A stretch of DNA of 64,000 nucleotides from Candidatus Omnitrophota bacterium (GTDB taxonomy: Bacteria > Omnitrophota > Gorgyraeia > Aquiviventales > Aquiviventaceae): assembly GCA_016190215.1 (NCBI GenBank), contig JACPRA010000020.1, forward strand, positions 12,868 to 76,867, read 5' to 3'. The notes beneath the pieces were generated by a model. It searched no databases. It saw only the letters and a list, made by a program, of their open reading frames with translations, and was not told where the DNA came from. The position numbers and the translations under genes are program-made. Shown here piece by piece: positions 1,840-50,173 of the stretch (its first letter is position 1; every line of letters begins with the position of its first letter).

Positions 1840-3086
1840 ACCACAGCAGACAGCAGACAGCACACAGCCGACAGACAGGTCCAGAGCGGTATCCGCTTGT
1901 TCTGTTTGCTGTGTGCTGTGTGCTGTGCGCCGGGCTCTCCGTCGGATGCGCGGTGCTGTGGCCGATCGGCTCCCGGGTGCCCCATCATCCGGCCAGGGCG
2001 CAGGAAACACTGGAGGACGGCTACCACGATCACCCCGGCGTCATCCACGTGCACACCACGTACTCCCACGACGCCGACGGCACGCTGGCGGACGTCGCGC
2101 GGGTGGCCAACGCGGAAGGGCTGCACTACGTCATCACGACGGAGCACAATAATCTCCGCTCGCTGCGCGAAGGCAACCAGGGCTGGCACGGCATGACGCT
2201 GATCCTCGTGGGCGAGGAGGTCTCCACGCGGGACGGGCACGTGCTCGCGCTCAACGTGCAGGAGGAGATTGACCGGGACCAGCCCACCCAAGCGATCCTC
2301 GACGAGATCGCCCGGCAGGGCGGGCTGTCGTTCCTGGCCCACCCCTACTTCAAAAAACATCGCTGGAAGAACTGGTCCGTGCAGGGGTTCACCGGGATCG
2401 AGGGATACAACACCACCCACGACGCCTTCGACGAAAACCTGCTGCGCGTGGCGTTGTGGGGCCTGACGGTGTCGCCCCATACGCTGTATCTCTCGCTCGT
2501 GGACCGGCCGTACGATCCGCTGGACCGGTGGGACGCGCTGGTCCGTCGGCACGGCCGCGTCGTCGGCATCGGCTCCAGCGACGCGCATGAAGTCCGCCTG
2601 TTGGGGGTGAAATTCGTGCCGTATGAGGTGCTCTTCAAGCTGGTGCGCACGCACCTGCTCGTGCCCGCCGGCGCGGCGTTGTCGCCGGCCGCGGTGTACG
2701 AGGCGCTGCGCGCCGGCCATGCCTATTTTTCCCTGGACCTGCTCGCGGACGCCACCGGATTCACCTTCATGGCCGACGACGGCCAACAGGTCTTCGGCGT
2801 GATGGGCGATGAGATCGAGCTGGCCGACCCGATGCAGCTGACCGTCATCCTGCCGGCCTCGGCCCACCTCGCGCTCTTCAAAGACGGCAGCGTAACGGCC
2901 ACCAGCGTCGGGCGGGTGTGGCACATCCGCGTGAGCGAGCCGGGCAGTTACCGGGTGGAGGCTTCCTTGAACGGCAAGCCCTGGATTTTTTCCAACCCCA
3001 TCTACGTCAGCCTACAGCCTACAGCACACAGCATACAGAACGAGCCGTCGTCTTCAATGCCCTCCCCGACCCCCACCGCGGAGTGA
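1836..3086 (+). CDS. PHP-domain metal-dependent phosphoesterase, secreted/membrane-anchored
   Basis: Carries the HVHTTYSHDADG ... ITTEHNN PHP motifs. The N-terminus MNHSRQQTAHSRQ...[13 protein letters not shown] is encoded entirely by the family-1 palindrome. The start overlaps the pmbA stop (ATGA). Confidence 0.7.
   Translation: MNHSRQQTAHSRQTGPERYPLVLFAVCCVLCAGLSVGCAVLWPIGSRVPHHPARAQETLEDGYHDHPGVIHVHTTYSHDADGTLADVARVANAEGLHYVITTEHNNLRSLREGNQGWHGMTLILVGEEVSTRDGHVLALNVQEEIDRDQPTQAILDEIARQGGLSFLAHPYFKKHRWKNWSVQGFTGIEGYNTTHDAFDENLLRVALWGLTVSPHTLYLSLVDRPYDPLDRWDALVRRHGRVVGIGSSDAHEVRLLGVKFVPYEVLFKLVRTHLLVPAGAALSPAAVYEALRAGHAYFSLDLLADATGFTFMADDGQQVFGVMGDEIELADPMQLTVILPASAHLALFKDGSVTATSVGRVWHIRVSEPGSYRVEASLNGKPWIFSNPIYVSLQPTAHSIQNEPSSSMPSPTPTAE
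1843..1935. repeat. Palindromic heptamer-repeat element, family 1 (CAGCAGA/CAGCACA ... GCTGTGT), full hairpin
   Basis: The left arm cagcagacagcagacagcacacagccgacagacag and right arm ctgtttgctgtgtgctgtgtgctgtgcgcc form an inverted repeat. It is embedded in the first 35 codons of the PHP gene. Confidence 0.85.
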
Positions 3087-3152
3087 CCGGCAACCCCCTA
3101 TGACGCGCCGAAACATGTTCACTCTGTTTGCTGTGTGCTGTCTGCTATGTGC
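3008..3152. repeat. Family-1 repeat, two arms separated by about 80 nt spanning the PHP 3' end and lipoprotein 5' end
   Basis: The left arm is cctacagcctacagcacacagcatacag (3008-3040). The right arm is ctgtttgctgtgtgctgtctgctatgtgct (3118-3150). The right arm encodes the lipoprotein signal peptide LFAVCCLLCASLGC. Confidence 0.75.
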
Positions 3153-4065
3153 TAGCCTGGGCTGCGCCCACGTGCGGCTGGACCCGCGCTATCAGGGCGT
3201 CCAACCGCTTCCTCCTGAGGCCGTCGAGTACTACACCGTCCCGGGCGAGCCGCCCGCTGCGGAACCGGAATGGATCGAGGAGCGCAGAGCGTACCGTCGA
3301 GGTATGGTGCGATTTCCGTTGCAGGCGGATTTCGAGCCCACCGAACCGATGGTGGAGATCGAATGGTTCGAATCCCGCAAACCCGGCCGGCGGCCGGCGA
3401 TCCTCTTTTCCCCGATCCTCGGCGGCGACTACCCGCTGGAGCGAGGATTTTGCAAGTACTTTGCTTCCAAAGGGTTCCATGTCGCTTTGGTCCACAGAAA
3501 AACGCTGAAAATTTCTCCGGAGCACGGCGCCGACCGCATCGAGCTGTTGCTGCGCCAGACCGTCGTGCGCAACCGGCAGATCGTCGGCTGGATGAGCCGG
3601 CAGCCGCGCGTGGACCCGGAGCGACTCGGCGGCGTCGGCATCAGCATGGGCGGGATGGCGGATCTCATCACGGCGGCGGTGGAGCCGCGCCTGAAAGCGC
3701 ATGTCGTCCTCCTGGCCGGCGGCAGCTTGGCCGACATCATCCGCGATTCCCGCGACCGCCTGCTGACCAAACCCCGCGGCCGGTATCTGGCCGCCCACGG
3801 CCTGGATATCCCGACGATGCACCGGCGGCTCAGCGACGAGATCCACACCGATCCGCTGCGCTTCGCTCCGTACGTGGATGCCAGGCGGCTGCTCATGTTC
3901 ATCGCCCTCAACGACTCCACCATCGGCCGGAGCAACGCGCTGCGGCTCTGGCGCGCCGTCGGAAAACCACAGGTCATTTTCGCCCCAACCGGCCATTACA
4001 CCTCCTACCTGTACTTGCCCTATCTTAAATACGCCTCCCTGAAATTCCTCCGCAAGCACCTGTAA
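3100..4065 (+). CDS. Lipoprotein with alpha/beta-hydrolase fold
   Basis: Has a lipobox SLGC after a hydrophobic N-terminus and a GISMGG nucleophile-elbow-like motif. About 320 aa. Confidence 0.5.
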   Translation: MTRRNMFTLFAVCCLLCASLGCAHVRLDPRYQGVQPLPPEAVEYYTVPGEPPAAEPEWIEERRAYRRGMVRFPLQADFEPTEPMVEIEWFESRKPGRRPAILFSPILGGDYPLERGFCKYFASKGFHVALVHRKTLKISPEHGADRIELLLRQTVVRNRQIVGWMSRQPRVDPERLGGVGISMGGMADLITAAVEPRLKAHVVLLAGGSLADIIRDSRDRLLTKPRGRYLAAHGLDIPTMHRRLSDEIHTDPLRFAPYVDARRLLMFIALNDSTIGRSNALRLWRAVGKPQVIFAPTGHYTSYLYLPYLKYASLKFLRKHL

Positions 4066-4191: not shown

Positions 4192-5736
4192 ATGTTCTGG
4201 CGGCAGTTCGAGACAACGCGGACGCGACACCAGCGCCGGTCTTCCGAGCGCGGGGCCGTCTTCCTGCTGCAGAGCTATCTCACGGTGTTTTGGTTCGTCG
4301 TCCTGACCACCGCCATGCTCACCCGCAGCTCCATGGAGCTGCGCCACTCGCAAGTGGCCCTGGAGGAGCACCAGGCGTTCTGGCAGGCGGAGGCCGGTCT
4401 GGACGAAACCCTCTACGGCATCAAAACCAATCCGCCCGCGCTGGCCGCCAATGAATGCACGGAGCCGACGGACCAGCTGCTGTCGCTGTCGGTGGGAGAG
4501 GGCTACGCGTACACGTACCAGGTGTGCCTGAACGAAAACGGGCAATACAGCGTGATCTCCACCGGCGAAGGCAACACCTCGGCGATCGAAGAACTCAGCA
4601 CCACGGTGGCCATTCCGAACGACAACCTGCGCTTCCGGCAGGCGGTGTTGGCCATTGACCAGATGGTCACGCGCCAGGCGACGTTCGGGGCCGTCAGTTC
4701 GGTGCTCACGACGCTGGGCGGAGGCACCACGCTGGTGTTGCCGTCCACTACTACTCTGAACCGGCAGGCCCATCTGGTGGCGCTCGCCAAGAACCCCGAC
4801 GGCGCAGCCGTCAAGCTCTCTGAGCGTTCCTACGTCAAAGGGAACGTGGTCATCCCGCCGGGGCTCACGTCAACCTCAGGATTGGTCATTGAAGAAGACA
4901 GCTCCCTCACCAATGAACAGGGGACCAGCGAGGCCAGCGTCTTGGAGGACCGGATCGTCTTGCCGGAACCCGTGGCCGTGCCGAGCGATGCAGTCAATCT
5001 TGGCGCGCTGGAACTGAAGGGCACCACCCGGTGCCTTGAGCCCGGCACGTACAAAACCACCAGCCTGGTCATGAGCAAAGAGGGCGGCGTGGAGCCGGTG
5101 CTCTGCACGAAAGGCGCGGTGAATCTCTACGTCACCGGCACCGTCACGCAGTCGTCCGGACGCCTGTACGGCCAGCCGGACACGACGAGCAGCACGCCGA
5201 TGAACCGGTACTCCCCCAAGCACCTGCGGATCTTCGTCACGGGAGAGCAGGAAGTGAAGTTCGGCGCCAGCATCACTGCCGCCGTGGTGTACGCGCCCCG
5301 CGCCCACGTGATCATCGGCAAGAAGCAGGTCTTCATGGGATCGGTCATCGCCAAGAAGGCGTCCATCGGCGGAACCGGCGAAGGCAACCGGACCTATTTC
5401 CTCTACGACCAGGCGCTGGCGAACGAGCGGTTCTCGGTGAACACCGGAACCCGCCAGGTGACCGTGCAGGCCCAGCAGGCCGTGCCCCAGGCCAGCGTCT
5501 CGCACTTCGCCGCCGGCACGGTGCCCTTCCGGGTCATTGACGGGTTTGATCCTTCCCACAGGATTGTCGCGCCGCCGGCGGGCGGAGGGCACAGCTTCAG
5601 CGCCCAATCCGCGACCCCCACGACCGCACCGAAAACGGAGTTGTCCGCCGCGGAGAAGCTCGCCGCCTACCTGAAAGAGTTGCTCAAGAAGGCTGCCGCG
5701 GCGATCAGCGCCTACCTGCGGGATCACGACGATTGA
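4192..5736 (+). CDS. PilX N-terminal domain protein (putative type IV pilus/pseudopilus minor component)
   Basis: The N-terminal anchor VFLLQSYLTVFWFVVLTTAMLTRSSMELRHSQVALEEHQAFWQAEAGLDE matches the PilX_N pattern (TM helix followed by QAfxaAEAGl). There is a GGAGGG RBS 8 nt before the ATG at 4192; an alternative ATG lies at 4162. Confidence 0.5.
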   Translation: MFWRQFETTRTRHQRRSSERGAVFLLQSYLTVFWFVVLTTAMLTRSSMELRHSQVALEEHQAFWQAEAGLDETLYGIKTNPPALAANECTEPTDQLLSLSVGEGYAYTYQVCLNENGQYSVISTGEGNTSAIEELSTTVAIPNDNLRFRQAVLAIDQMVTRQATFGAVSSVLTTLGGGTTLVLPSTTTLNRQAHLVALAKNPDGAAVKLSERSYVKGNVVIPPGLTSTSGLVIEEDSSLTNEQGTSEASVLEDRIVLPEPVAVPSDAVNLGALELKGTTRCLEPGTYKTTSLVMSKEGGVEPVLCTKGAVNLYVTGTVTQSSGRLYGQPDTTSSTPMNRYSPKHLRIFVTGEQEVKFGASITAAVVYAPRAHVIIGKKQVFMGSVIAKKASIGGTGEGNRTYFLYDQALANERFSVNTGTRQVTVQAQQAVPQASVSHFAAGTVPFRVIDGFDPSHRIVAPPAGGGHSFSAQSATPTTAPKTELSAAEKLAAYLKELLKKAAAAISAYLRDHDD

Positions 5737-6781: not shown

Positions 6782-7195
6782 GTGAAACACCTCACCGAGT
6801 ACTTGTGGTTCCACACTAAGACCCGCCGCGACCTGGTCAATATCACCGACCGGATCGGCGAGCTTGTGGCCGACAGCGGCGTGCAGGAGGGGTTCTGCCT
6901 CGTCTCGGCGATGCACATCACCGCCGGCATCTGGGTCAACGATGACGAGGACGGCTTGTGGAAGGATTTATGGGAGCTGCTGGACCGGCTGGTCCCGGTG
7001 GAGCGGGCCTACCAGCACCACCTCACCGGGGAAGACAACGGCGACGCCCACCTGAAGCGCACGCTGGTGCATCATCAGGCCATCCTCCCGATCACCAAGG
7101 GCAAGCTGGACTTGGGCCCGTGGGAGCAGGTCTTCTATGCCGAGTTCGACGGCCGCCGCAAGAAGCGCGTGGTAGTCAAGATCCTCGGTGAGTGA
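6782..7195 (+). CDS. yjbQ: YjbQ/UPF0047 family secondary thiamine-phosphate synthase-like enzyme
   Basis: 137 aa. The conserved LVSAMHITAGIWVNDDEDGLWKDL ... HHLTGEDNGDAHLKRTL matches YjbQ. Confidence 0.75.
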   Translation: MKHLTEYLWFHTKTRRDLVNITDRIGELVADSGVQEGFCLVSAMHITAGIWVNDDEDGLWKDLWELLDRLVPVERAYQHHLTGEDNGDAHLKRTLVHHQAILPITKGKLDLGPWEQVFYAEFDGRRKKRVVVKILGE

Positions 7196-7310
7196 ACTTG
7201 ATTATGGATGCCTGACGAAAGATGATGCTGGATGACTGATGATAGGTGATGGATGTCGTTCGCCCTTCATCAATCATCCATCATCAGGCATCAATCATCT
7301 CTCCTCAGAA
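7196..7310. repeat. Palindromic element of about 100 bp, family 3 (GATGATGGATG), copy 1
   Basis: The arms gatgcctgacga...gatgatag and catcaatcatccatcatcaggcatc form a long stem. It is about 93% identical to the copy at 18858-18975. It sits between the convergent genes yjbQ and the C45 peptidase. Confidence 0.85.
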
Positions 7311-8508
7311 GTTCCTCTACGTTAAGGCGGTGGTACGGGGTCTGAGCCGCCCGCGTCATTCCCTGCGCATTGGCGACCCACATGTCGGGCCACGCAAACA
7401 CCACGCTTTGCATATTGGAGCCGGGGGCCACCGCCTGCGCGATTTGCATCGCGCCCTGGGCGTCGAGACGGCCGTAGTGGGCCATGAGGCCGGCGGCTTG
7501 GCCGAGATAGCGCACCTCATACGCGGAGCCGGACGGCGGCTCCAGCCCCGGGCGCTTGGGGTCCCCGCCGGAGGCGATCTGCCTGGCGCGGATGCCGGGG
7601 TCCATCGCCGTATCCGCGCGCAGCACGGCATCCGGCACCGGGCGGGCGTAGGAGACTCCGGCTTCCTTCGGGTCGTCCGCCTGGAAGACCACCGCCTGCC
7701 GGTGCGTGGTTTCGACCGCCACCGCCCGCGGCGGCTCGGCCTGCGCGATCACGTAGTTGACGCCGACGGTGCGGGGCGCCGTCCGGATGATCTCCACCGC
7801 TTGGTCCAGCGCGGAGGCGTCTTCCAACACGCGGCGCATCAGGAACACCATGGGGATCCCGCGGGCGGAGATGTCGTCGGTTTCCGCGCCCACCTGCCCG
7901 ATCGAGATCGCCTGGTCATTGATGCCGGTGAGGACGCCGATAAACCCGGCCCACCCCGCATTCACAAACGCGCGGCGGCCCGACGGCTTCACCACGAACA
8001 CCGCCGCAAACTGCTGGAGGCCCACCTCGATGTTCCAATCCAGGTTCCGGCTATGCACCAGCCGTCCCGATGAGGTGGCGCGCCCCCAGGCCGCCACGTT
8101 CGCGCAGGAATACGTGCGGTCTGGAATCGCGTGCAGGCGGGCCAGCTCGCGCAGCGGCACGCCGGACCCCTGCGCCAACCCCCGCAGTTCTTCGCGGTAG
8201 GCCTCCGGCAGAAAATCCCATCCCTGCGCCCAGGCACGGTCCAGCCACCAGTCCGCCGCCCAGCGGTTGACCAGCGGCACCTTCAGGTAGCGCCGGAAGT
8301 AGCTCAGCACCTGCGCCACACACTGCCGCACCTCCTCGCGCAGCAGCTCCCCATGCTGCCGTCCCAGCTCGTACGGTGAGCCCTCCAGAAAAACGATGGG
8401 AAGTTCTTCCTGATATTCGACGTGCGCCGCCTCCGCCGTGACAAGTGACAAGTTACAAGTGACAAGAATCATGACCAACCACACTCGCCAGGTTCGCATT
8501 TCTTTCAC
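7291..8508 (-). CDS. C45-family peptidase (acyl-CoA:6-APA acyltransferase-like), secreted
   Basis: Has the autoproteolytic YSCANVAAWG motif region. The signal peptide MILVTCNLSLVTAEA is encoded by the GTGACAAG repeat arm. An AGGTGA RBS precedes the start. Confidence 0.5.
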   Translation of the reverse strand: MKEMRTWRVWLVMILVTCNLSLVTAEAAHVEYQEELPIVFLEGSPYELGRQHGELLREEVRQCVAQVLSYFRRYLKVPLVNRWAADWWLDRAWAQGWDFLPEAYREELRGLAQGSGVPLRELARLHAIPDRTYSCANVAAWGRATSSGRLVHSRNLDWNIEVGLQQFAAVFVVKPSGRRAFVNAGWAGFIGVLTGINDQAISIGQVGAETDDISARGIPMVFLMRRVLEDASALDQAVEIIRTAPRTVGVNYVIAQAEPPRAVAVETTHRQAVVFQADDPKEAGVSYARPVPDAVLRADTAMDPGIRARQIASGGDPKRPGLEPPSGSAYEVRYLGQAAGLMAHYGRLDAQGAMQIAQAVAPGSNMQSVVFAWPDMWVANAQGMTRAAQTPYHRLNVEELLRRDD

Positions 8509-8570
8509 CTGTCACCTGTCACGTGTCACTTGTTGCCCGCCCTGTCACCTATCACTTCATCCATCATCCG
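8436..8570. repeat. Family-2 heptamer repeat (GTGACAG), inverted pair
   Basis: The left arm is gtgacaagtgacaagttacaagtgacaag (8438-8466). The right arm is cacctgtcacctgtcacgtgtcacttgt...ctgtcacctatcac (8505-8560). The left arm encodes the C45 signal peptide. The right arm encodes the ceramidase C-terminus GDRAGNK plus stop. Confidence 0.85.
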
Positions 8571-9800
8571 CTTCAACTCCTCCACGATCAGCGGCCCGGT
8601 CGTCGGCCCGTTGAAGCTCATCAGCGCCTCATACGCCCCGCTGTCATACCAGCGGCTCGGCAGGCAGTAGCCGATATAGTCGTCGGCGAACCCCACGATC
8701 ATGCCGGTCCATCCCGCGGCGCGCGCCGCCTCCTTGAGCTCCAGGCCCAGCTCCGAGGAGAGATCGCACGGCACGCCGATGAAGGCGATCCCGCCGACGG
8801 CGGCGAGCGTGAGGGTCGCATCGTCGTCCACGAGCCGCCGGCTCATCCAGCCCGGCAACGCGGTTGTCGTGCTCAGGCGCGCCTTGGCCGGCGGCAGGGG
8901 GATGGTGCGCTGAACAGCCTCGATGTCCTCGCCGGTCTCCGGCGTCATGTGCTCCAGCAATCCCAGCGCCGCGGCCGCAATCGGCCGGCCGATGCGCTCC
9001 GCCCGCTCGAAGGCGTCGCCGGATTTGGCCGGCGCCTGATCGGCCACGGCACCGGCGAAAAACAAGACGACCGCGTTCGGAAATCGCTCGGCGATCGCGC
9101 GGCGGGCGGCGCCTGGATAATCCGCTGAGAGCTGCCGGTTCCAGCTTCCCAGGGACGTCGGATGCGCGGAGAAGTTGACGACGAGGGCCAGCGGATCGTT
9201 CGCGCCGGAGGGATAGACGCCCAGCACCTGCACGGCGGGATCCGTGCGGCCGCGCGGATCCATCCGATTTTGGATGAGCTGCGGAAGCTCGGCGCGCGCC
9301 GCGACGATGCTCGCGGGCGCCAGGCGCGACACGGCACGCTCGACCGACATCGCCGCGGCTTCCACGATGCCGTCGAAGGCCTCGGGGTCATAGTGCCCCA
9401 TGGAGATTTTTTCAAGGAATCGCCGGCCATAGGCGCCGGGGCCGGAGTGGGTATGCGTGGCCGCAATCAACATCGTCGCTGTCGGATCCACGCGGCCTCC
9501 GCGGAGCACGCGGTCGCGGATCGCCTGCGAGAGCGCTTCATCCACAATCAACACATCCAGGCTCACCAGCGCGATCGCGCGGCGATCGGTTGTCAAGACC
9601 AGGGCGTGCGCGCCGACCGGATCATGGGTGCCGGTCGAGGGCCGGCCCTTGCGCCGGCTGTAGCCGGCCAACGGCACGCCGCGCGGCAAAGCGAACTCGG
9701 CGGACGCGGCCCCGGCTTTGAGCTCGCCGCTCCATGCAGCCTCCGGCGACGCGGCGCATGCCAGGCAGAGCACGACGAGCGCCGGCCGGCCAATCCGCAT
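8526..9800 (-). CDS. Neutral/alkaline ceramidase-like hydrolase, secreted
   Basis: The start is MRIGRPALVVLCLACAASPEAAW. HTHSGPG and the downstream motifs match the non-lysosomal ceramidase N-terminal domain. The upstream part of the longer ORF 8526..10742 is antisense to cca and was rejected. Confidence 0.6.
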   Translation of the reverse strand: MRIGRPALVVLCLACAASPEAAWSGELKAGAASAEFALPRGVPLAGYSRRKGRPSTGTHDPVGAHALVLTTDRRAIALVSLDVLIVDEALSQAIRDRVLRGGRVDPTATMLIAATHTHSGPGAYGRRFLEKISMGHYDPEAFDGIVEAAAMSVERAVSRLAPASIVAARAELPQLIQNRMDPRGRTDPAVQVLGVYPSGANDPLALVVNFSAHPTSLGSWNRQLSADYPGAARRAIAERFPNAVVLFFAGAVADQAPAKSGDAFERAERIGRPIAAAALGLLEHMTPETGEDIEAVQRTIPLPPAKARLSTTTALPGWMSRRLVDDDATLTLAAVGGIAFIGVPCDLSSELGLELKEAARAAGWTGMIVGFADDYIGYCLPSRWYDSGAYEALMSFNGPTTGPLIVEELKRMMDEVIGDRAGNK

Positions 9801-11275
9801 TATCGCGTCCGCTCGAGCTCTTCCCGAGCGACGCGGAGGGCGTCCTCTACGCCGGCGACGCGTCCCTCGGCCTGCGCCTCCTGGACCGCTTGAAGCAACC
9901 GGCCGATCACCGGGCCGGGGGGCAGTCCCAACGCCTGCATCAGTTGGCGGCCGTCCAGCAACTTCGGCGGCGCGACCGCCTCTTCGGGTTTGAGGAAATA
10001 CGCGCGCAGCAGCTCCTCCAGCCGGGCGCGCTGCTGGTCGATCTGGTCCACATTGGAAGACGGGCCGCGCGTGGCCATCCGGTCCGCCCACCACACCAGC
10101 AGGCAGGCGGGGCCGTCTTCGCCCAGGTCGCGGAAGAACCGGAACACGGCGCGGGCCGTCAACTGCACTTCCCGGCTCAAGTGGCCGGGGCGCAGGTGGG
10201 AGCGAACGAGCTGCTCCACCATGGCGGTTTCGCGGTTCGCCAGCCGCAACCGCTCCAAGGGCGCGCCCACCAGCTCCGCGCCGAAGTGCTCGTGCCCCAG
10301 GAACCAAATGTCGCCATCCGGCTTGACCCGTTTGGTCGCCGGCTTGCCGACGTCGTGGAACAGGCCGGCCAGCTTGATGAGCGCTTTGCGGGAGCGCCCC
10401 TCCACCGGCTCGACGGCGCAATAGGCAGCCATGGGAGCGCGCAGCTCTTCGCTGAATTCGGCGAAATCCCGCAGCATGCGGTCGCCCTGCGCGACCGTTT
10501 CCAGCTCGTGCCCGAGCACGTCCAGGTGATGGTACGTGCCCTGGTCGAGCCCGCGCCCCGGCGCCAGCTCGGGAAACAACCGGCCGAGCACGCCAAGCTG
10601 CTCCAATGAGCGTAGGGCGGGCGCGGCCGCATCCGTCTGAAAGATCGCCAGCAGCTCGTCGCGGACGCGCTCGCCGGACACGCCGGCCAAACGCGGGGCT
10701 ACGGCCGAGATCAACGGCAGCATGGCGGGATCCAGGTGCCACCCAAGACCGGCGGCGAACCGGAACGCGCGCAGGATGCGGACCGGGTCGTCTTCAAACG
10801 TCTTGGGAAAGCAGGCGCGCAGCAGGCCGCGTTCGGCATCGCGGCGGCCGCCCAGCGGGTCCAGCAGGTGCGCGGCCCAGTGCGGGTCGCGGCACCAGCG
10901 CTCCAGCACAACGGCGAAGGCGTTGACGGTGAAATCCCGTCGGCTGAGATCCTCTTCGATGGTCCGCCCGCGGAACTCCGCGCAGTCCAGCTCCACCCGG
11001 CCGGACGACGACGTGAAGACGATGCGGGCGGTCGGCTGGCTTTCGTCGAGGCAGATATACGTCCCCCCGAGCCGGTCCGCCAGCCGGCGGGCGAAGGCCA
11101 GCGCCTCCGAGGGCACGGCCACGTCCACGTTCACGCGGGCGGGCGACGGCAGCGGACGCCCCAGGACGGCATCGCGCAGCAACCCGCCGACGAGATAGAC
11201 CGGCCGGCCTTCGGCGCGGCCGGCGTCAGCGACGCGGCCGAGCAGCGTGCGAAGCGATTCCAATGTCGTCGTCAT
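9800..11275 (-). CDS. cca: CCA tRNA nucleotidyltransferase / polyA polymerase family with HD domain
   Basis: Carries the LVGGLLRD ... RRDFTVNA head-domain motifs plus an HD region (LFHDVGK, HEHFGAELV). The TAA stop overlaps the ceramidase ATG (TAATG). Confidence 0.8.
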   Translation of the reverse strand: MTTTLESLRTLLGRVADAGRAEGRPVYLVGGLLRDAVLGRPLPSPARVNVDVAVPSEALAFARRLADRLGGTYICLDESQPTARIVFTSSSGRVELDCAEFRGRTIEEDLSRRDFTVNAFAVVLERWCRDPHWAAHLLDPLGGRRDAERGLLRACFPKTFEDDPVRILRAFRFAAGLGWHLDPAMLPLISAVAPRLAGVSGERVRDELLAIFQTDAAAPALRSLEQLGVLGRLFPELAPGRGLDQGTYHHLDVLGHELETVAQGDRMLRDFAEFSEELRAPMAAYCAVEPVEGRSRKALIKLAGLFHDVGKPATKRVKPDGDIWFLGHEHFGAELVGAPLERLRLANRETAMVEQLVRSHLRPGHLSREVQLTARAVFRFFRDLGEDGPACLLVWWADRMATRGPSSNVDQIDQQRARLEELLRAYFLKPEEAVAPPKLLDGRQLMQALGLPPGPVIGRLLQAVQEAQAEGRVAGVEDALRVAREELERTR

Positions 11276-18839: not shown

Positions 18840-18857
18840 GTGTTCTCCGCTACGACA

Positions 18858-18959
18858 GGCTCATGATGCTGAATGCCTGATGAAAGATGATGCCGGATGA
18901 CTGATGATAGATGATGGATGTAATTCGCCCTTCATCAATCATCCATCATCAGGCATCAA

Positions 18960-18975
<16 letters not shown>
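18858..18975. repeat. Palindromic element of about 100 bp, family 3, copy 2
   Basis: Near-identical to 7196-7310. It lies between glpD and glpK. Confidence 0.85.
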
Positions 18976-25874: not shown

Positions 25875-26666
25875 TCACGCCCGGCAGACGCCGCGCTTCG
25901 ACTGCCGAATGAACTCCAGCAGGCGCGTCACTTCCGGGCAGGGGGCCACTTCCTTCGCCACCCGCTCGAGGGCATGGCTCATGGAAAGCCCGGAGTTGAA
26001 GAGCAGCCGGAACGCCTTGTGCAGAAGCTCTTTGGATTCGGCGGAGACTCCGGCGCGCCGCAGGCCTTCGTTGTTCAGCCCGAACACCTGCGTGGGATAC
26101 CCGGCACAGGTGGAATAGGGCGGGATGTCCTGCGCCACGCGCGAGCAGCCGCCGGTGATGGACAGCCGCCCCACCCGGACAAACTGATGGATGCCCACGA
26201 GCCCCCCCATCACCGCGCCGTCTTCAATTTCGATGTGCCCGGCCAACTCTGTGGTATTCGCGATGATCACGTGGTTGCCGATGAGACAGTCATGCGCCAC
26301 GTGGGAATACGCCATGAGCAGGCAGTCGGAGCCGATCACCGTCTTGCCCCCGCCGCCCTTGGTGCCGGGATTGATGGTCACGTACTCGCGGATGCGGTTG
26401 CGGTCGCCGATGATGAGCTCGGTTTTTTCGCCGGCGTACTTGAGGTCCTGCGGGATGCTGCCGATCACCGCGCCGGTGAAGAGCTGGCAGTCGGAGCCGA
26501 TGGTGGTGTAGCCCTCCACGACGCAGTGCACGCCGATGCGGGTGCCGGACCCGATGCGGACGTTCGGCCCGATCACCGAGTAGGGGCCGACGTCCACCCC
26601 CTCGCCCAGGACGGCCTGCGGATCAATGATGGCCGTCGGATGGATGGTCGCGGTGGCCGCCATCAT
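25875..26666 (-). CDS. lpxA: Acyl-ACP--UDP-GlcNAc O-acyltransferase
   Basis: IHPTAIIDPQAVLGEGVDVGPYSVIG and hexapeptide repeats. The start is placed at MMAATATIHPT. Confidence 0.85.
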   Translation of the reverse strand: MMAATATIHPTAIIDPQAVLGEGVDVGPYSVIGPNVRIGSGTRIGVHCVVEGYTTIGSDCQLFTGAVIGSIPQDLKYAGEKTELIIGDRNRIREYVTINPGTKGGGGKTVIGSDCLLMAYSHVAHDCLIGNHVIIANTTELAGHIEIEDGAVMGGLVGIHQFVRVGRLSITGGCSRVAQDIPPYSTCAGYPTQVFGLNNEGLRRAGVSAESKELLHKAFRLLFNSGLSMSHALERVAKEVAPCPEVTRLLEFIRQSKRGVCRA

Positions 26667-27991
26667 GCGCTCTCCTCCGCCAGCGCGAACATCAGCTCGC
26701 CCTCGCACACCAGCTTGCCGTCCACGTACGCTTTCCCGCTCAGCTGGCCGGTCCGCGAGCGCAGCTTCACCAGCTCGGCTTCCAGGACCAGCTGGTCGCC
26801 CGGCACGACCGGCTTGCGGAATTTCACCTTGTCCACGGACATGAAGTAGGCCAGCTTCCCGAGGTTTTCTCCTTTATTCAGGATCAAGATGCCCCCCACC
26901 TGCGCCATCGCTTCGATGATCAGGACGCCCGGCATCACCGGCCGGTTGGGGAAATGGCCGCGGAAGAAATAGTCGTTCATCGTCACGCATTTCAGGCCGA
27001 CGGCCTTGGTGTCCGTCAGCGACGTGATGCGGTCCACCAGCAGGAACGGATAGCGGTGCGGCAGGACTTTCTGGATCTGGAGAATATCGAGCTGCGGCCC
27101 GACCATGATCTCCTGGCTGGGAGACTGCAGCGAGCCGGTCAGCCAGGCGTCCCGGGCCTGGGCCAGCTTGTGCAGCAGCTTCACGTTCAGGCGATGCCCG
27201 CTCTTGATGGCGACAACATGGGCGTTCAGGTGCGCCCCCAGCAAGTAGAGATCGCCGATCAGGTCGAGGATCTTGTGCCGGACGAATTCATCGTCAAACC
27301 GGAGCGTGTTCTGGATCACGCCCTTCGCTCCGACCACCAGGGTGTTGGTGTAGTTGGCGCCCCGGCCGAACCCCTGGGCCCGCAGCGCTTCCGCCTCTTC
27401 CTGCAGGCAGAACGTCCGCGCCGGCGCGATCACCTCGTCGAAGTGCTGATGGCCGTTGCGCTCGAAGGACGCGAACTGGGATTTCAGCGCCACGTGCGGG
27501 TAGCTCAGCGTATAGGACACTTTGAAGGACGGACTCGGGAAGACAGCCAGCATGGACTCGCCCTCGTCCACGATGACCGGTTCGCGCAGCGAAAAGACCT
27601 TGCGCGGGGCCGCCTGCTCGACGATGCCGGCGGCTTTCAATTGCTCGGCAAACGGGGCGGCGGAGCCGTCCACCCCCGGCAGCTCGATCCCGGAAACCTC
27701 CACGTATGCGTTGTCGATGCCCACGCCCCACAGGGAGGCCATGAAGTGCTCCACCGTCTGCACCTCCACCCCGTCCTTGGTCAGGCTGGTGCGCCGCATG
27801 CCCATGCCGGTGTCCACCGCATGGGCCGGCGTGGCGGGGATGGTCGGGCGGTTCGGCAGGTCCGTCCGAATAAAGATCACCCCCGCGTGCTCAGGGGCGG
27901 GCATTACCCGCATGGTCACTGTCTCGCCGGTGTGCAGTCCAGCGCCCTCGAGGGACACCGGCCGGGCCAGTGTGCGCTGCTGCGCGCTCAT
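26663..27991 (-). CDS. lpxC-fabZ: Bifunctional UDP-3-O-acyl-GlcNAc deacetylase / 3-hydroxyacyl-ACP dehydratase (LpxC-FabZ fusion)
   Basis: The N-terminal half has LpxC motifs (QRTLARPVSLEGAGLHTG, HxxxD region). The C-terminal half has the FabZ hot-dog (LPHRYPFLLVDRI, GHFP). Confidence 0.8.
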   Translation of the reverse strand: MSAQQRTLARPVSLEGAGLHTGETVTMRVMPAPEHAGVIFIRTDLPNRPTIPATPAHAVDTGMGMRRTSLTKDGVEVQTVEHFMASLWGVGIDNAYVEVSGIELPGVDGSAAPFAEQLKAAGIVEQAAPRKVFSLREPVIVDEGESMLAVFPSPSFKVSYTLSYPHVALKSQFASFERNGHQHFDEVIAPARTFCLQEEAEALRAQGFGRGANYTNTLVVGAKGVIQNTLRFDDEFVRHKILDLIGDLYLLGAHLNAHVVAIKSGHRLNVKLLHKLAQARDAWLTGSLQSPSQEIMVGPQLDILQIQKVLPHRYPFLLVDRITSLTDTKAVGLKCVTMNDYFFRGHFPNRPVMPGVLIIEAMAQVGGILILNKGENLGKLAYFMSVDKVKFRKPVVPGDQLVLEAELVKLRSRTGQLSGKAYVDGKLVCEGELMFALAEESA

Positions 27992-28016
27992 GGTTCGATT
28001 CCTCGGTGTTGACGGA

Positions 28017-28580
28017 TCATGATCCCTTTTTGCCGCCGGCGGCATACCGGTCGTTGAGCGACTTCAGCACTTCGTCGGTGAGATCGTAGACATCGTCGCC
28101 GACGATCAGCGAGCGCTGGTCCAGCACCAGGGAAAATCCGTTCGCCCTGGCGTACGCGGTGACGGCGCCGTCAATCTCATCAAAAATCTGCTTGGCCACC
28201 TGGTTGCGGTCGCGCACCGACTCCCGCTCGCTCTTGGTCTTGAGCCGCTGGAATTCGTCCGACTTCTCTTCCAGCTCTTTCGACTTGGCTTCTTTCGCCT
28301 GGTCGTTGAGCAGCTCCAGGTTCTGCCGCATCTTCTTGAGCTCGCCGAGCCGCCCTTCCAGCTCCGACAGCTTCTGCTTGCCGCGCTGCTCCAGCACCTG
28401 CTCGGTATCCTTGGTGCGCTGGTACTCTTCAAACACACGGACCAGGTTCACGTAGCCGATTTTCAGCTCGGCCGCCTTCAGGACGGGACAGGAGACAGGT
28501 GACAGGAGACAGGTGCCAACCAACAACGCTCGGATGCTCCAGGACATCATCCACGTGTTCAGCCGAACTGGCGTCTTCAT
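28017..28580 (-). CDS. skp: OmpH/Skp periplasmic chaperone
   Basis: Has a signal peptide. The coiled-coil is rich in Lys/Glu (KIGYVNLVRVFEEY...). It sits between bamA and the lpx genes. Confidence 0.7.
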   Translation of the reverse strand: MKTPVRLNTWMMSWSIRALLVGTCLLSPVSCPVLKAAELKIGYVNLVRVFEEYQRTKDTEQVLEQRGKQKLSELEGRLGELKKMRQNLELLNDQAKEAKSKELEEKSDEFQRLKTKSERESVRDRNQVAKQIFDEIDGAVTAYARANGFSLVLDQRSLIVGDDVYDLTDEVLKSLNDRYAAGGKKGS

Positions 28581-28662
28581 CACGTCGTCTCTCCTCATGC
28601 AGTTGTTGTGTCGTCGCATACCTGTCTCACTTGTAACCTGTCACGTGTCACCTGTTACTTTG
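28478..28662. repeat. Family-2 heptamer repeat (GTGACAG), inverted pair flanking the skp 5' end
   Basis: One arm is gacaggagacaggtgacaggagacaggtgcc (28478-28520). The other is cctgtctcacttgtaacctgtcacgtgtcacctgtt (28620-28660). The first arm encodes the Skp signal peptide LLVGTCLLSPVSCPV. Confidence 0.8.
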
Positions 28663-28663
28663 G

Positions 28664-30967
28664 CTAAAAACTCCGGCTGACGTTGAAGTGGATGCGCGGG
28701 GAGCGCTTCTCATCGCCCAACTGGGTGATGGGGAACCCCAGATCCACCCGGACCGGGCCGATCGGCGTGTTCACCCGCATGCCGATGCCGGTGCCGCTCT
28801 CGAATGACTGCCCGAAATCGCTGATGCTCCTCCACACATTGCCCACGTCATAGAAGACCGACCCCTTCAGGATGGACTTGCCGCGCTCATCCTTCAAGAT
28901 GGTCGCCACCTCTTCCAGCGTGCCCATGAAGATCGCTTCACCGCCAATGGGGTCGTTGGAGACGGCGTCCTTCGGGCCGACGCGCCGCTCGCGGAACCCG
29001 CGGATGGTGTCCGCGCCGCCGGCGAAGAACCGCTCGAAGATCGGGACCTGCGCGGTGTTATCGTATTCGTTGACCAGGCCGGTTTTGAGGCGGGTCTCCA
29101 GCGTGAACCGGTCCCAGTGCGAATAGTAGGTGCTGACACCGCCCTGCAGCCGGTAGAAATCCCGGTTGCCGGCCAGCAGCCCGCCGGCCAGGTCGGACGA
29201 CACGAAGGTCACGATGCCGCGCGTGGGCTCGAAGCGGTTGTCCCGCGTGTCCCACGTCAGCGTCGCGTTCGCCACGCTGATGTCGCTGCGGCCCTGTTCC
29301 GCTTTCAAGTCGGCCGACGCGTCCGCCACCACATCCGAGATGTCCGTCCGGAACAGCTGGTAGCCGATCCCCGCGTGGAGGTTTTCGCCGAAGCTCTTGC
29401 CCAGCCGCAGGCCGCCTCCCTGCCGCCGCTCTTCAAACGCCAACCCCAGGTTCCGGCTGCGCAGCCGGGTCCGGCTGAACGCATCCACCCCGAGGGAGAC
29501 CGGATGGCCGAAAATCCACGGCTCGGTAAACGAGAGGTCGAAGTACCGCCGCACCGTCCCGACTTCCACGCGGAAGCGCAAATCCTGCCCCGCCCCCGTG
29601 AAGTTCGGCGGGTTGAAGAGATCGAAGTTGCGCTGCTCGACTTCCACCAGCCCGACGATGCGGTCCACTGAGGAGAACCCGCCTCCGAAGCTGAAGCTGC
29701 CGGTCTTGGCTTCCTTCACGTTGACGATCAGGTCGTCATGCTGCGGCAGCGGCGTCGCCTGCGTGTCCACGTTCACTTCTTCGAAATAACCGAGATTGTA
29801 CAGCCGCTCGATGGACCGGCGGATGCGCGAGCCGTCGAAGGGCTCGCCCGGATGCAGGCGTATTTCCCGCCGCACCACCACGTCTTTCGTGCGCAGGTTT
29901 CCCCGGATGTCAATGCGCCGCACGTAGGTGAGGTCGTGCTCCTCGACCTGCAGCGCCAGGTCCACGCGCTTGCTGGCCGGGTCCAGGGTCGTCGCCGGCG
30001 TCACCACCGCGTGGATGTACCCGCGGTCGCCGTAGTACTGCGTCATCGTGCGCAAGTCTTCCTGCAGCACCTCGGTGTTGTACACCGCGCCCGGCTTCAA
30101 GCGCAGGAGCACTTGCAGGTCTTCCGGCGGGAACAGCGTCACGCCAGCGAGGGAGATCGTCCCGATGCGGTGCTGCAACCCCTCGGCAATTTTCAGGTGG
30201 AGATACAGCTGGCGGCCGGACGGATCGGCGGCCAGGGAGTGCTCCACGCGGACATCCTGGTAGCCGTTGCGCCGGTAAAACGCGCGGATCCGCTCCGCAT
30301 CTTCTTCCAGCACTTGCTCGTCGTACACGCCGGCGGTGAACCAATGCCGCCGCTTGGTCTTCAGCAGCTTCAGGATGCGCCGGTCCGGAACGGCCAGATT
30401 GCCTTCGATGAAGATCCGGCGGATGCGCATCTGCGGCCCCTCATCCGCCACCACGTACACGGTGGCTTGGTTGGTGGCCGGATCGGCGGACACGCTGCTT
30501 TCGACGGCGATCTTCGAGTAGCCCTTGCGGCGGTACTCAGCCTTGAGCTTGTCGACGCCTTCCTTCACCTTGCGGGGGTCATAGAGCTGCCCGGCCTCCA
30601 CGCCCAGCAATTGCCGCAGCCGCTCGACCCGAAACAGCCGGAACCCCTCGAATTCCACCGCGGTGATCGTGGGCTTCTCGGTGACCTGAAAGACCACGCG
30701 CACGCCGTCCGCCGCCGGCTCCGTGGCCACCTGGATGTCGGTGAAGTAGCCCAGCGCGTAGAGCCGGCGGATGTCCTCGCTGACGACGGATTCGGCATAG
30801 AGCATGCCCGGCTTGGTTTGCACGCGCGCCAAGCACGTTTCCGACGCGATGGTGTGCAGGCCGGCCACGTCCACGCTGACGACGCGCGGGGCCTCGTTCT
30901 CCGCCATCGCCGGGGCGGCCCCGCCGATCAGCACGACCCCCAGCCAGAGCGCCTGCCACGCGCGCAT
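28664..30967 (-). CDS. bamA: Outer membrane protein assembly factor BamA
   Basis: 767 aa. Has a signal peptide, POTRA repeats and a C-terminal beta-barrel. Confidence 0.85.
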   Translation of the reverse strand: MRAWQALWLGVVLIGGAAPAMAENEAPRVVSVDVAGLHTIASETCLARVQTKPGMLYAESVVSEDIRRLYALGYFTDIQVATEPAADGVRVVFQVTEKPTITAVEFEGFRLFRVERLRQLLGVEAGQLYDPRKVKEGVDKLKAEYRRKGYSKIAVESSVSADPATNQATVYVVADEGPQMRIRRIFIEGNLAVPDRRILKLLKTKRRHWFTAGVYDEQVLEEDAERIRAFYRRNGYQDVRVEHSLAADPSGRQLYLHLKIAEGLQHRIGTISLAGVTLFPPEDLQVLLRLKPGAVYNTEVLQEDLRTMTQYYGDRGYIHAVVTPATTLDPASKRVDLALQVEEHDLTYVRRIDIRGNLRTKDVVVRREIRLHPGEPFDGSRIRRSIERLYNLGYFEEVNVDTQATPLPQHDDLIVNVKEAKTGSFSFGGGFSSVDRIVGLVEVEQRNFDLFNPPNFTGAGQDLRFRVEVGTVRRYFDLSFTEPWIFGHPVSLGVDAFSRTRLRSRNLGLAFEERRQGGGLRLGKSFGENLHAGIGYQLFRTDISDVVADASADLKAEQGRSDISVANATLTWDTRDNRFEPTRGIVTFVSSDLAGGLLAGNRDFYRLQGGVSTYYSHWDRFTLETRLKTGLVNEYDNTAQVPIFERFFAGGADTIRGFRERRVGPKDAVSNDPIGGEAIFMGTLEEVATILKDERGKSILKGSVFYDVGNVWRSISDFGQSFESGTGIGMRVNTPIGPVRVDLGFPITQLGDEKRSPRIHFNVSRSF

Positions 30968-39041: not shown

Positions 39042-40223
39042 TTACCACGAGATCACAACCTTGCCTTTGGCGCCAGTGCCCCCGTCCGGGCCACCTCCCG
39101 CTCCCCCGCCACCAGGCGCGGCCCCCACCGCAGCCGTCGTGGCTCCGCCGGATCCGCCATTGCCGCCATCGCCGCCTCGACCGCCGGAGCCGGCCACTGG
39201 CGTATCGCCCTGGGCTCCTGCTTGGCCTGAAATCGCCAAGGTCAGCGTACTACTCCCTCCCTGGCCGGCCCCTGAGCAGGTGGTACTGCACCCGTTTTTC
39301 CCTCCACCACCACCGGTCGCGTTATACGAGATCCCTTGTCCGGAAAATGTGCTCGAGCCGCCGGTGCACCCGTACCCGCCACATGCCGCTCCGCCTGCTC
39401 CGCCCGCTCCAACCACCACCGTATATGAGGCTCCGGAGATGACCGGCACAATCCCCTTGCCGTATCCTCCGCCTCCTCCCCCGGCGCCTGGCGTCCAACA
39501 ACACACGGCATTCCCGCCTCCGCCGCCCGCCCCCCACATCTCCAGCACAATCTGGGGCACATCCGCCGGAGCGATAAACGTATAGGTGCCTGCCGTGTCA
39601 TACGGTTGTATCCCATGCGGGAGGGCCCCGCCGGCGGATTTCCAACTCGTCCCATCATAGACTTCCAGTTGGTTCGAGTCCGTGTTATAGATGACCATCC
39701 CCTCCACCGGAGAGGTCACCGCGCTCGGGAGCAGCCGGGGCGGAAGGAAGCCGGAATTGGTCGAACGAATGTCCAGGGCGGCGGTCGGATTCGTCGTCCC
39801 AATGCCGACCTGGCCGTTGAGGAAAATGAGTGTGCTCGTGTCGCTGGTCCCGACGCGTAACGTATTGCCCTGCACCCGCAGCGCGTACCCTCCCGGATCG
39901 GTCGTCCCGATGGCGACATTGCCGTTACTATCGATCAAGAAGGGGCTCGTATCCCCGCTCGGAGCATCATCAATACGAAGGGTCGTTGTTCCGCCGCCGC
40001 CGACCACATACACGGCAGGATTGTTCAGATCGCCGATGACCTGCAATCGCGCGGCGGGCGAACTCGTCGTGCCGATCGCCACATCTCCGCTGGTGCGCAG
40101 CTCCTTATAGACGCCGCGGGGCGAGGGGTAGTACGTCGTGAGGGTCAAGTCTTCGGCGAGGGCGTAGGCGAGGGTGCCAAGAAGGATAACCAGAACCCAC
40201 CAGCCGCGGAGGCGTGAAGTCAT
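39042..40223 (-). CDS. Secreted Gly-rich protein with shared N-terminal module (paralogue C)
   Basis: The start MTSRLRGWWVLVILLGTLAYALAEDLTLTTYYPSPRGVYKELR is chosen by alignment to the other three paralogues. The body has the motif LPPRLLPSAVTSPVEGMVIYNTDSNQLEVYDGTSWK, then a Gly-rich domain (LEMWGAGGGGG ...), and ends GKVVISW. Confidence 0.75.
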   Translation of the reverse strand: MTSRLRGWWVLVILLGTLAYALAEDLTLTTYYPSPRGVYKELRTSGDVAIGTTSSPAARLQVIGDLNNPAVYVVGGGGTTTLRIDDAPSGDTSPFLIDSNGNVAIGTTDPGGYALRVQGNTLRVGTSDTSTLIFLNGQVGIGTTNPTAALDIRSTNSGFLPPRLLPSAVTSPVEGMVIYNTDSNQLEVYDGTSWKSAGGALPHGIQPYDTAGTYTFIAPADVPQIVLEMWGAGGGGGNAVCCWTPGAGGGGGGYGKGIVPVISGASYTVVVGAGGAGGAACGGYGCTGGSSTFSGQGISYNATGGGGGKNGCSTTCSGAGQGGSSTLTLAISGQAGAQGDTPVAGSGGRGGDGGNGGSGGATTAAVGAAPGGGGAGGGPDGGTGAKGKVVISW

Positions 40224-40230
40224 TGCGTGT

Positions 40231-40533
40231 TTATACCCACCCGAGTTTGCGCAGCCGAGGGATGGCGTCCAAATAGACCTGTGCGTCTCGACGCATGCCG
40301 ACTTTGACAACGAGCACGATCAGACGTTGGCGCTCGATCCGGTAAATCACGCGGTAGTCCTCAACCCGCAGCCGCCGATATCCCGCCAAGACGCCTCCCA
40401 ACGGTTTGCCGAACTCGGTCGGGGCCGCGGTCAATTTCTTCCGGAGGGCCTTGGTGATCTGCAGGCGAGCCTGCGGATCGAGCCGAGCCAAATCCTCTGT
40501 CCAGACGAGTGGATGAATCTCAACCTGCCACAT
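40231..40533 (-). CDS. relE: Type II toxin RelE/ParE family
   Basis: 100 aa. GYRRLRVEDYRVIYRIERQRLIVLVVKVGMRRD is the RelE/ParE core. It follows the Phd gene. Confidence 0.75.
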   Translation of the reverse strand: MWQVEIHPLVWTEDLARLDPQARLQITKALRKKLTAAPTEFGKPLGGVLAGYRRLRVEDYRVIYRIERQRLIVLVVKVGMRRDAQVYLDAIPRLRKLGWV

Positions 40534-40539
40534 CCAGGG

Positions 40540-40830: not shown

Positions 40831-40913
40831 CGTCCCTCCTGTTCCTCACCAGCACAAGCCTATCATATGACTATTTAATTGTCAAATTAATTGTCAATCG
40901 TATTCTCTCTCGC

Positions 40914-45689: not shown

Positions 45690-45790
45690 ATTCGCTCGGT
45701 GGATGATAGATGACGGATGATTGATGACTGATGGACGGATGCCTTGCACATCCATCATCCATAATCCGTCATCCATCATGGTAGTTAATG
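45690..45790. repeat. GATGATGGATG-type palindromic element (family 3 relative)
   Basis: ggatgatagatgacggatgattgatgactgatggacggatgccttgcacatccatcatccataatccgtcatccatcatgg. It is self-complementary around gccttgca. Confidence 0.75.
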
Positions 45791-50128: not shown

Positions 50129-50173
50129 TCGCGCTCTCCGTCACTTTGCCACTCTGTCACTTGGCCACTCATC

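Follow-up and report, generated by a model that had tools for sequence, protein, structure and literature searches.

The DNA analysed here is a 64,000-nucleotide stretch (hereafter the window) of contig JACPRA010000020.1 from a Candidatus Omnitrophota bacterium, a groundwater metagenome-assembled genome (MAG), with a G+C content of 65.8%. On its minus strand a ceramidase-like gene lies upstream and the gene of a C45/AAT-family peptidase (C45) downstream, in tandem and not convergent as a sequence-only reading of the window had it. The encoded C45-family protein is 100% identical to NCBI HYY15_02070. At the boundary of the two cistrons stand two inverted arrays of imperfect 7-nt units, and the element that they build is a cistron-junction hairpin bracketing the C45 start codon. 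Its parts and the flanking genes are the following.

7291-8499, minus strand: C45/AAT-family peptidase gene (PF03417)
8437-8466, minus strand: 3' pyrimidine-rich arm, (CTTGTCAC)n, translated into ILVTCNLSLVT, the C45 signal peptide's hydrophobic core
8467-8504, minus strand: hairpin loop, holding both candidate C45 starts and encoding the n-region MRTWRVWLVM
8505-8533, minus strand: proximal 5' purine-rich arm, (GTGACAS)x4, with a Shine-Dalgarno (SD)-like AGGTGA at 8505-8510, a 26-nt spacer and the ceramidase TGA at 8526-8528
8534-8556, minus strand: distal degenerate 5' arm (GTGATAG GTGACAG and an interruption), encoding with 8529-8533 the ceramidase tail VIGDRAGNK
about 8526-9797, minus strand: ceramidase-like gene (PF04734)

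On the plus strand, 8438-8466 reads GTGACAA GTGACAA GTTACAA GTGACAA G, and 8505-8555 reads CACCTGT CACCTGT CACGTGT CACTTGT, an interruption, and then CTGTCAC CTATCAC. The sequence-only reading had assigned the minus strand of the first segment to the C45 signal peptide and the partner arm to the last residues (GDRAGNK) and stop of the ceramidase. Both assignments hold: the former reads M-ILVTCNLSLVT-AEA, and the latter gives VIGDRAGNK, the end of the ceramidase C-terminus ...EVIGDRAGNK, whose stop is provided by a repeat unit.

Along the minus strand, the ceramidase tail and TGA are followed by the purine arm ending in AGGTGA, by 6 nt and by ATG 8497-8499. The C45 N-terminus runs from MRTWRVWLVM through the array-encoded ILVTCNLSLVT to AEA/AHVEY (the slash marks the cleavage site), where the conserved domain starts. 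As no in-frame start codon separates the array from the conserved domain, translation has to run through the array. Public NCBI annotation places the C45 start at ATG 8470-8472 (MILVTC...). The likelier start, from its basic n-region and the AGGTGA upstream, appears to be ATG 8497-8499, giving MRTWRVWLVMILVTCNLSLVTAEA; the start codon would therefore lie inside the hairpin loop. Heptamer arrays probably mislead start-codon calling in Omnitrophota MAGs. Several orthologues of Skp, whose gene carries a similar element (below), are likewise annotated with widely differing N-termini.

Heptamer arrays in the window

The GTGACAG repeat had also been proposed to encode the Skp signal peptide, with an inverted partner in the spacer between bamA and skp. 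This is borne out: 28485-28515 encodes the hydrophobic core, and the partner is present in the sequence at 28620-28660. The SD and start ATG (28578-28580) of skp lie inside the 112-nt loop between the arms. Two more copies had been listed. The one in the purB leader exists as an array, yet it has no inverted partner within 300 nt; the supposed variant at 50128-50172 is a period-16 repeat upstream of rpiB. A further member of the family, (GTGACAG)x4 in purL, had been missed. These and the other arrays that overlap genes are listed here.

28485-28515, minus strand: skp 3' arm, (CTGTCNC)n, encoding LLVGTCLLSPVSCPV; hydrophobic core (GT)CLLSPVSCPV of Skp (PF03938)
28620-28660, minus strand: skp 5' arm in the bamA-skp spacer, 4 nt past the bamA stop at 28664-28666
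61674-61709 (core 61676-61706): unpaired perfect array, (AGGTGAC)x4.4, 20 nt ahead of the purB start at 61653 (minus strand)
56016-56047, minus strand: solo CTGTCAC-type array, (GTGACAG)x4 on the plus strand, translated inside the purL coding sequence
56353-56387, minus strand: solo ACAGCAC-type array, in frame inside purL, about 305 nt from the 56016-56047 array
50136-50170: period-16 (8+8) direct repeat containing GTGAC as its core, 8 nt before the start of the rpiB open reading frame (ORF); only loosely related
1841-1932, plus strand: ACAGCAS / CTGTGTG pair coding for a lipoprotein-like signal peptide, with the n-region NHSRQQTAHSRQT from the 5' arm and the h-region from the 3' arm
3005-3157, plus strand: ACAGCNN / CTGTGTG pair; the 5' arm falls within the upstream gene's C-terminal tail, and the 3' arm encodes FTLFAVCCLLCAS, the signal peptide of the next gene

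Both purL arrays align as in-frame insertions relative to T. thermophilus PurL (3VIU), and these solo arrays show that entry into coding DNA needs no hairpin partner. The gene at 1836 has a start that overlaps the upstream stop as ATGA. All four window genes with a 3' arm in their N-terminal coding region (C45, Skp and the lipoprotein-like genes at 1836 and 3100) are signal-peptide-like there. At window junctions preceding cytoplasmic proteins, both arms are confined to the spacer.

Eighteen arrays of period 7 stand in the window, where composition-matched shuffles give 0.4, and there are none with periods of 8-12; the TRF output for it contains more than 30 period-7 rows. The word GTGACAG itself occurs 14 times where 7.2 are expected, about a twofold excess that was equalled in 3 of 100 shuffles. 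The decisive signal is thus the tandem arrangement, the word count being only mildly high. Further units include ACAGCAC, AGCGTAC, GGATGAC and GAAGTAn, with period 7 throughout, and most of their arrays are inverted pairs between co-directional housekeeping genes (L9-dnaB, L25-pth, glpK-glpD, hisG-TPR gene, purB-purC, purS-purQ and purF-purM). The purF-purM boundary (54303-54364) consists of (TCGTCGC)x3.6 and, after 1-2 nt, a partly complementary (GATCCAC)-type array. It places the pyrimidine-rich arm first, opposite to most window pairs.

Arrays across Omnitrophota

We sampled 55 loci around C45 orthologues from Omnitrophota genomes. Together with the window they yield dozens of unit types, including ACAGCAC, GCGACAA, GAGACAG, AGTCCAT and GGATTTC, and GTGACAG is one among these in a single class of paired inverted heptamer arrays. 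The usual build is 3-5 units per arm around a loop of 1-130 nt, the tracts being imperfect and 3-4.5 units long, and for most arrays an inverted partner lies no more than 300 nt away. Across the 55 loci, array density reaches 1.5-8 per 10 kb in one high-GC clade, and most other lineages are without arrays. The closest relative found (locus L040, MAG nzgw325), whose C45 is 76% identical, has no period-7 array in its 12-kb locus, so that arrays are unevenly distributed even between close relatives. Its junction reads TGATG, followed by a 50-residue N-terminal extension.

The window and the relatives' loci gave 44 inverted pairs with an arm complementarity of at least 70%. In the co-directional pairs, the median offset of the 5' arm's outer edge from the stop of the upstream gene is +1.5 nt, and 28 of 34 pairs fall between -40 and +20 nt. 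Where spacers are long, the element adjoins the upstream stop and not the downstream start, as in the purB-purC (60270-60361) and hisG-TPR (45703-45779) elements, which are 160-210 nt from the next start. Distances to downstream starts were left unused because the gene map, based on third-position G+C (GC3), mis-assigns some downstream genes. The start codon itself may precede the 5' arm, fall between the arms or follow the 3' arm.

Signal peptides of C45 and Skp orthologues

The order ceramidase-then-C45 is kept among the relatives, and an arm pair brackets the C45 start in 14-15 of 28 related loci. The units differ by lineage (GTGACAN, GCGACAA, GCAACAA, GAGACAG, ACAGCAA, GTGAGTG, CAGTGAT and GGTGAGA), and 15-19 of 21 positions of the 3' arm are complementary to the upstream arm of the same junction. 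For loci L001, L003, L007, L010, L011 and L013 this own-partner match exceeds every cross-genome pairing. At other loci some cross pairings equal or surpass it; L005, L009 and L021, whose units are likewise lineage-specific, are among these, with one or two such pairings each.

The heptamer period is also visible in the proteins. An exact tripeptide recurs 7 residues further on in 39 of 111 C45 N-termini (about 1.1 expected; 0-2 at other distances) and in 31 of 120 Skp N-termini (about 1.8 expected); over both proteins, other distances give 0-5. The array-type cores differ from one another, for example LTPHTSHLTP (C45), LVACCLSLVA and LTTHHLPLTT, and many Skp orthologues have polar n-regions with a 7-residue period, such as MSEVRGQRSGVRDQRSEIRNQK. 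At two Skp loci (L056 and L057) a strong SD and ATG precede both arms; there the purine 5' arm makes the n-region (MSEVRSQKSEDK...) and the pyrimidine 3' arm the h-region.

The sequence-only reading had proposed a comparison with orthologues. C45 orthologues without arrays carry ordinary, unrelated signal peptides with the same AEA/A cleavage region, and their junctions show a stop/start overlap as ATGA or TGATG. Because a signal peptide and the same cleavage region are already present in these orthologues, the arrays overwrite rather than supply: on this comparison of sequences, they replace a pre-existing signal peptide and do not create export from nothing. They may cost export rather than being optimised for it. 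The claim that a GTGACAG family supplies signal peptides thus stands as far as the translation of the arrays goes, but the family is not a special one and its arrays overwrite. The refuting case that the sequence-only reading had named, an identical peptide lacking flanking repeats, did not turn up: like peptides come with the repeat and a partner arm in the DNA, and the outcome favours the claim. Some of the array-encoded leaders in L007 (4890-4965), P0084, P0019 and P0114 look poor as signal peptides; MTVLLLTPHTSHLTPIAVEA, for one, has no basic n-region and a core rich in T, P and H.

The recurrence of similar motifs in many orthologues of two unrelated proteins could also point to selection on the protein for a sorting motif, or to a coincidence of composition, with the DNA repeats as a by-product. 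We give this next to no credence. The motifs vary widely (LSPVSCLLS is a further one), and some are poor as hydrophobic cores. For each of them there is a complementary arm, either in non-coding DNA or in a different gene. Identical units also build wholly intergenic pairs and the purL arrays, and enrichment is confined to the 7-residue period.

Tolerance of the arms as coding sequence

The genetic code accounts for this tolerance. Every unit is read in all three frames, because 7 and 3 are coprime. For (CTGTCAC)n, the three frames give L S P V T C H and no stop codon, and (GTGCTGT)n translates as V L C A V C C. The complements of pyrimidine-rich units code for polar or charged amino acids (T A H S Q R K E). 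A translated pyrimidine-rich arm passes as the hydrophobic core of a signal peptide, and its purine-rich complement as an n-region or a C-terminal tail. Codons and their complements specify residues of opposite hydropathy. An inverted repeat therefore reads as a polar segment and then a hydrophobic one, in the order that a signal peptide has. GTGACAG contains TGA, and any ORF that runs into a GTGACAG array therefore ends within 7 codons.

Turnover of the junction elements

Closely related genomes can carry unrelated elements at the same junction. The C45 genes of L005 and L007 have a third-codon identity of 0.92, yet the approximately 160 nt from the end of the ceramidase core to the cleavage site are only 0.45 identical, with different units in both arms and an unrelated loop (L005 5881-6050, L007 4803-4963). 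Other junctions of these two loci are also swapped (GGGTTTC x6 against GGATTTT x2, GCAAGCA against GTAGGCA, and CAGCAAG against AGTCCGT/CTTCGGA). The opposite is seen between L004 and L031: with a third-codon identity of 0.48 their synonymous sites have reached saturation, but all 36 of 36 positions of the 3' arm agree and the 5' arms differ by exactly one 7-nt unit.

Among 41 classifiable orthologues, the class of the cassette (the arm-loop-arm unit) shows no relation to the identity of the mature protein. The same-class fraction is 0.15-0.5 in every divergence bin against 0.35 by chance, the two closest bins holding 2 and 20 pairs. The cassettes turn over independently of the flanking genes. 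Within one genome, an identical unit recurs at several junctions. The L010 junction (4708-4799) is chimeric, with a 5' arm of (GCGACAA)n and a non-complementary 3' arm of (GGCTTAT)n that matches the arms of a perfect pair at 10218-10307, 5.5 kb away in the same genome. This chimera suggests ectopic conversion between junction elements.

The 7-nt indel between the L004 and L031 5' arms would also fit contingency loci, in which gain or loss of one unit shifts the frame and so toggles expression of the gene, the mechanism of the CTCTT repeats in the Neisseria opa leader. A unit length that is not a multiple of three and the presence of arrays in leader-peptide coding regions, as in opa (PMC3960869), point the same way. 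We nevertheless regard phase variation as very improbable here. The tracts are short and imperfect, and they sit on housekeeping genes (skp and purL, and the junctions of dnaB, pth, purC and purQ); most arrays are non-coding and paired, which phase variation leaves unexplained. In addition, the C45 junction is identical in four independent assemblies, a set preselected for an identical C45 protein in which only the 5' arm was free to vary.

Folding and strand symmetry

The C45 junction is predicted to fold with -46.8 kcal/mol (z -3.2) on the sense strand and -36.5 kcal/mol (z -4.8) on the antisense strand, and the skp junction with -71.7 kcal/mol (z -2.9) on the sense strand; sense and antisense folds are both far stronger than those of shuffles. 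The predicted C45 fold places the SD-like AGGUGA and codons 10-20 within the stem and leaves the AUG in the loop. Over the 44 pairs, G-U pairs on the sense strand are not in excess of A-C mismatches (about 35 against 34), nor is the sense fold consistently stabler than the antisense fold (about 20 pairs more stable, 12 less). There is no sign of selection on the sense RNA, and a sense-strand RNA under selection was dropped for this lack of asymmetry. The RNA hairpin would follow inevitably from the structure of the DNA, and it plausibly ties translation of C45 to termination on the ceramidase, replacing the ATGA coupling of the array-less relatives.

Several known elements were considered and rejected. 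There is no terminator-like site in 8300-8700 and no T-run after the arms, and a scan against Rfam 15 found only one tRNA at gathering score in the whole window. REP head tags (GTAG or CGTC) mark both outer ends in only 1 of the 44 pairs. A miniature inverted-repeat transposable element should have a shared interior; ACAGCAC-type elements have arms in common and unrelated loops, and only the pair at 7190-7310 and 18850-18975, described below, is a full-length copy. SD/anti-SD mimicry (AGGTGA against TCACCT) as a general mechanism fits GTGACAG units only, and not ACAGCAC or others. A purine-arm-first polarity is no strand signal, as an inverted repeat reads alike on both strands, and AGTCCAT-type units break the rule. 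Read as a -35-like element, GTGACA gave a single weak promoter match.

Selection could nonetheless have shaped the hairpins as elements of the operon mRNA, with the coding overlap secondary. A stem starting at the upstream stop would shield the upstream cistron against 3'-5' exonucleases or serve as a partial terminator, in the manner of REP/BIME elements, and where it encloses the SD and AUG of the next gene it would link that gene's translation to termination upstream. The strong predicted stems speak for this, as do the 5' arm that adjoins the upstream stop even in the long purB-purC and hisG-TPR spacers (an asymmetry shared with Xanthomonas), the ATGA/TGATG coupling of array-less orthologues at the same junction, the occupation of the ceramidase-C45 junction in most clade members despite differing units, and the L004/L031 arm and loop, kept far above synonymous sites. 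Set against these are the strand symmetry just described, a start codon in no fixed register with the arms, the existence of solo arrays, the swapping of cassettes between near-identical relatives and the lack of U-tract terminators at the elements. We hold selected mRNA elements to be a possible explanation, though a rather unlikely one.

The same symmetry, with no RNA-strand signal, would suit sites that act at the DNA level. These could be arrays binding one heptamer per protein subunit (cold-shock or OB-fold proteins) or non-B DNA such as cruciforms and G-quadruplexes with effects on supercoiling, replication or transcription, and there are precedents and proposals of this kind for heptamers of Xanthomonas and Nostoc (G-quadruplex; PMC4692102) and of Beggiatoaceae (binding of cold-shock protein, S1 or CsrA; PMC4679880). 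The dozens of unrelated units within and between genomes argue against a sequence-specific binder. The G-rich character of a G-quadruplex is likewise missing: GTGACAG, ACAGCAC, GCGACAA, AGTCCAT and others are without G3 tracts. DNA-level sites are, in our view, very improbable.

Comparison with known repeats

Our literature search found no description of these repeats in Omnitrophota. Their nearest counterparts are heptameric simple sequence repeats (SSRs), of which a general bacterial excess is credited by PMC4692102 to a 2007 survey. Those of Xanthomonas (GGGAATC) and Nostoc (GGGGAYT) were described by Rehm et al. 2015 (PMC4692102), where their function is left unresolved. Xanthomonas has about 185 GGGAATC arrays per genome, 70-75 of them as nearby inverted pairs and 89-93% intergenic, and they lie nearer to the upstream ORF (28 nt against 160 nt; PMC4692102). 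As in those genera, the Omnitrophota arrays are tandem 7-nt units (there about four per array) with period-7 over-representation, mostly at gene boundaries, in inverted pairs able to form stem-loops and nearer to the upstream ORF end. Also as in Xanthomonas, the same gene pairs are occupied in related species with extensive variation of length and sequence, and housekeeping genes are concerned. Xanthomonas, however, has one G-rich unit, whereas dozens are found per clade here and several per genome. Translation of the arms is routine here and yields signal-peptide cores, n-regions, C-terminal tails and purL loops, while intragenic arrays are rare in Xanthomonas (7-11%) and no coding role is described for them.

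REP, BIME and REPIN elements of gamma-proteobacteria are short palindromic repeats at 3' gene ends within operons, with many copies in genome-specific families, and REP elements persist at orthologous intergenic sites. REPs are single imperfect palindromes of 20-40 bp with a GTAG or CGTC head, extragenic by definition and mobilised by RAYT transposases. The elements described here resemble REPs and REPINs as short imperfect palindromes with many copies and with the same unit families at several junctions of one genome. They differ in their tandem heptamers and in arms that overlap the coding sequences of C45, skp, ceramidase, purL and two lipoprotein-like genes. The roles proposed for REP-type elements in PMC3733652 include mRNA stabilisation and termination.

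In Neisseria opa, the pyrimidine-rich CTCTT repeat encodes the hydrophobic portion of a leader with a unit that is not a multiple of three (PMC3960869), as the present arrays do, and it is the precedent for leader peptides written by a repeat. The opa tracts, however, are long, perfect and hypermutable, phase-vary surface proteins and have no inverted partner, whereas those described here are short, imperfect, paired, mostly non-coding and placed on housekeeping genes. TAACTGA repeats of marine Beggiatoaceae, cyanobacteria and Bacteroidetes (MacGregor 2015, PMC4679880) form arrays of 2-6 copies at gene boundaries. Many of these directly precede a start codon, some run into the end of the upstream ORF, and strains differ by indels in 7-nt steps. 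The abundance of tandem heptamers at gene boundaries is common to both. TAACTGA, unlike the present arrays, is one conserved unit in direct orientation (one inverted case in 170 sets) without a hairpin partner, and its translation into signal peptides is not reported. Cyanobacterial short tandemly repeated repetitive (STRR) heptamers are further relatives in kind. The present case stands apart from these systems in its many unit types, covarying arms, turnover independent of the flanks and, most of all, the systematic translation of both arms into halves of a signal peptide.

Other features of the window

A GATGA-type palindromic element of about 100 nt has two near-identical full copies, loop included, at 7190-7310 (after the C45 stop, between convergent genes) and 18850-18975 (between glpK and glpD). 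Four independent Logan contigs with the C45 gene (L058-L061) all end about 20 nt past the C45 stop, at this element, which suggests a multi-copy repeat that breaks assemblies. Downstream of skp, a 460-residue ORF (26663-28045, minus strand) resembles a fused LpxC-FabZ protein, and the syntenic genes of relatives have precomputed Pfam hits to LpxC and FabA. The ORF at 40174-40900 has a third-position G+C of 0.64 against about 0.85 elsewhere, and beside its end stands the AT-rich direct repeat TTAATTGTCAAA; the segment may thus be of foreign origin or not coding at all.

Interpretation

Taken together, these results are probably best explained by REP-like, self-renewing palindromic microsatellite elements, each made of two inverted heptamer arrays, at cistron junctions of high-GC Omnitrophota, with arms that are tolerated as coding sequence. 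The edge of the 5' arm coincides with the upstream stop, and the arms are translated wherever they overlap genes. The arrays would arise and be renewed at the DNA level, slipped-strand mispairing adding and removing 7-nt units. Ectopic conversion or template switching would spread favoured units among junctions and keep the arms complementary, and whole arm-loop-arm cassettes, with start codon and signal peptide, would be replaced independently of their flanks. In the polycistronic mRNA, the arms are expected to form a stem of 24-30 bp. At C45 this stem would enclose the SD and the start, with the upstream stop in the 5' arm, and C45 translation would probably depend on ribosomes that finish the ceramidase.

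Several points weigh against such self-renewing elements. No array-spreading enzyme or mechanism was identified in the 64-kb window or in about 0.6 Mb of relatives' DNA, which together make up the whole evidence base; RAYT was not searched for. The L004/L031 arm conservation could reflect purifying selection, and with it a real function, rather than recent exchange, and the occupation of the same junction in about half of the 28 loci could mean that some hairpin is needed there rather than that it is an insertion hot spot. No unit-number polymorphism appeared in the four independent assemblies preselected for an identical C45 protein, and slippage is therefore not rapid. Finally, export of C45 and Skp and use of the proposed start codons are themselves predicted from sequence.

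A bolder form of the idea would be a mobile or convertible junction cassette that delivers an upstream stop, a translation start and an export signal in one insertion or conversion event and is exchanged within and between Omnitrophota by a dedicated enzymatic or template-switching mechanism. Such cassettes, which would be a source of new and replaced signal peptides, seem to us doubtful.

Non-coding repeat DNA is here translated into protein to a large extent: heptamer arrays write the export signals of about a third of the C45 and a quarter of the Skp orthologues of the clade. The locus offers a testable system for how heptamer microsatellites, whose excess in bacteria is unexplained, arise, spread and stay paired, as well as for the wholesale replacement of signal peptides and the question of how much sequence a signal peptide needs. 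In practice, the arrays probably affect both gene-start calling and metagenome assembly in Omnitrophota.

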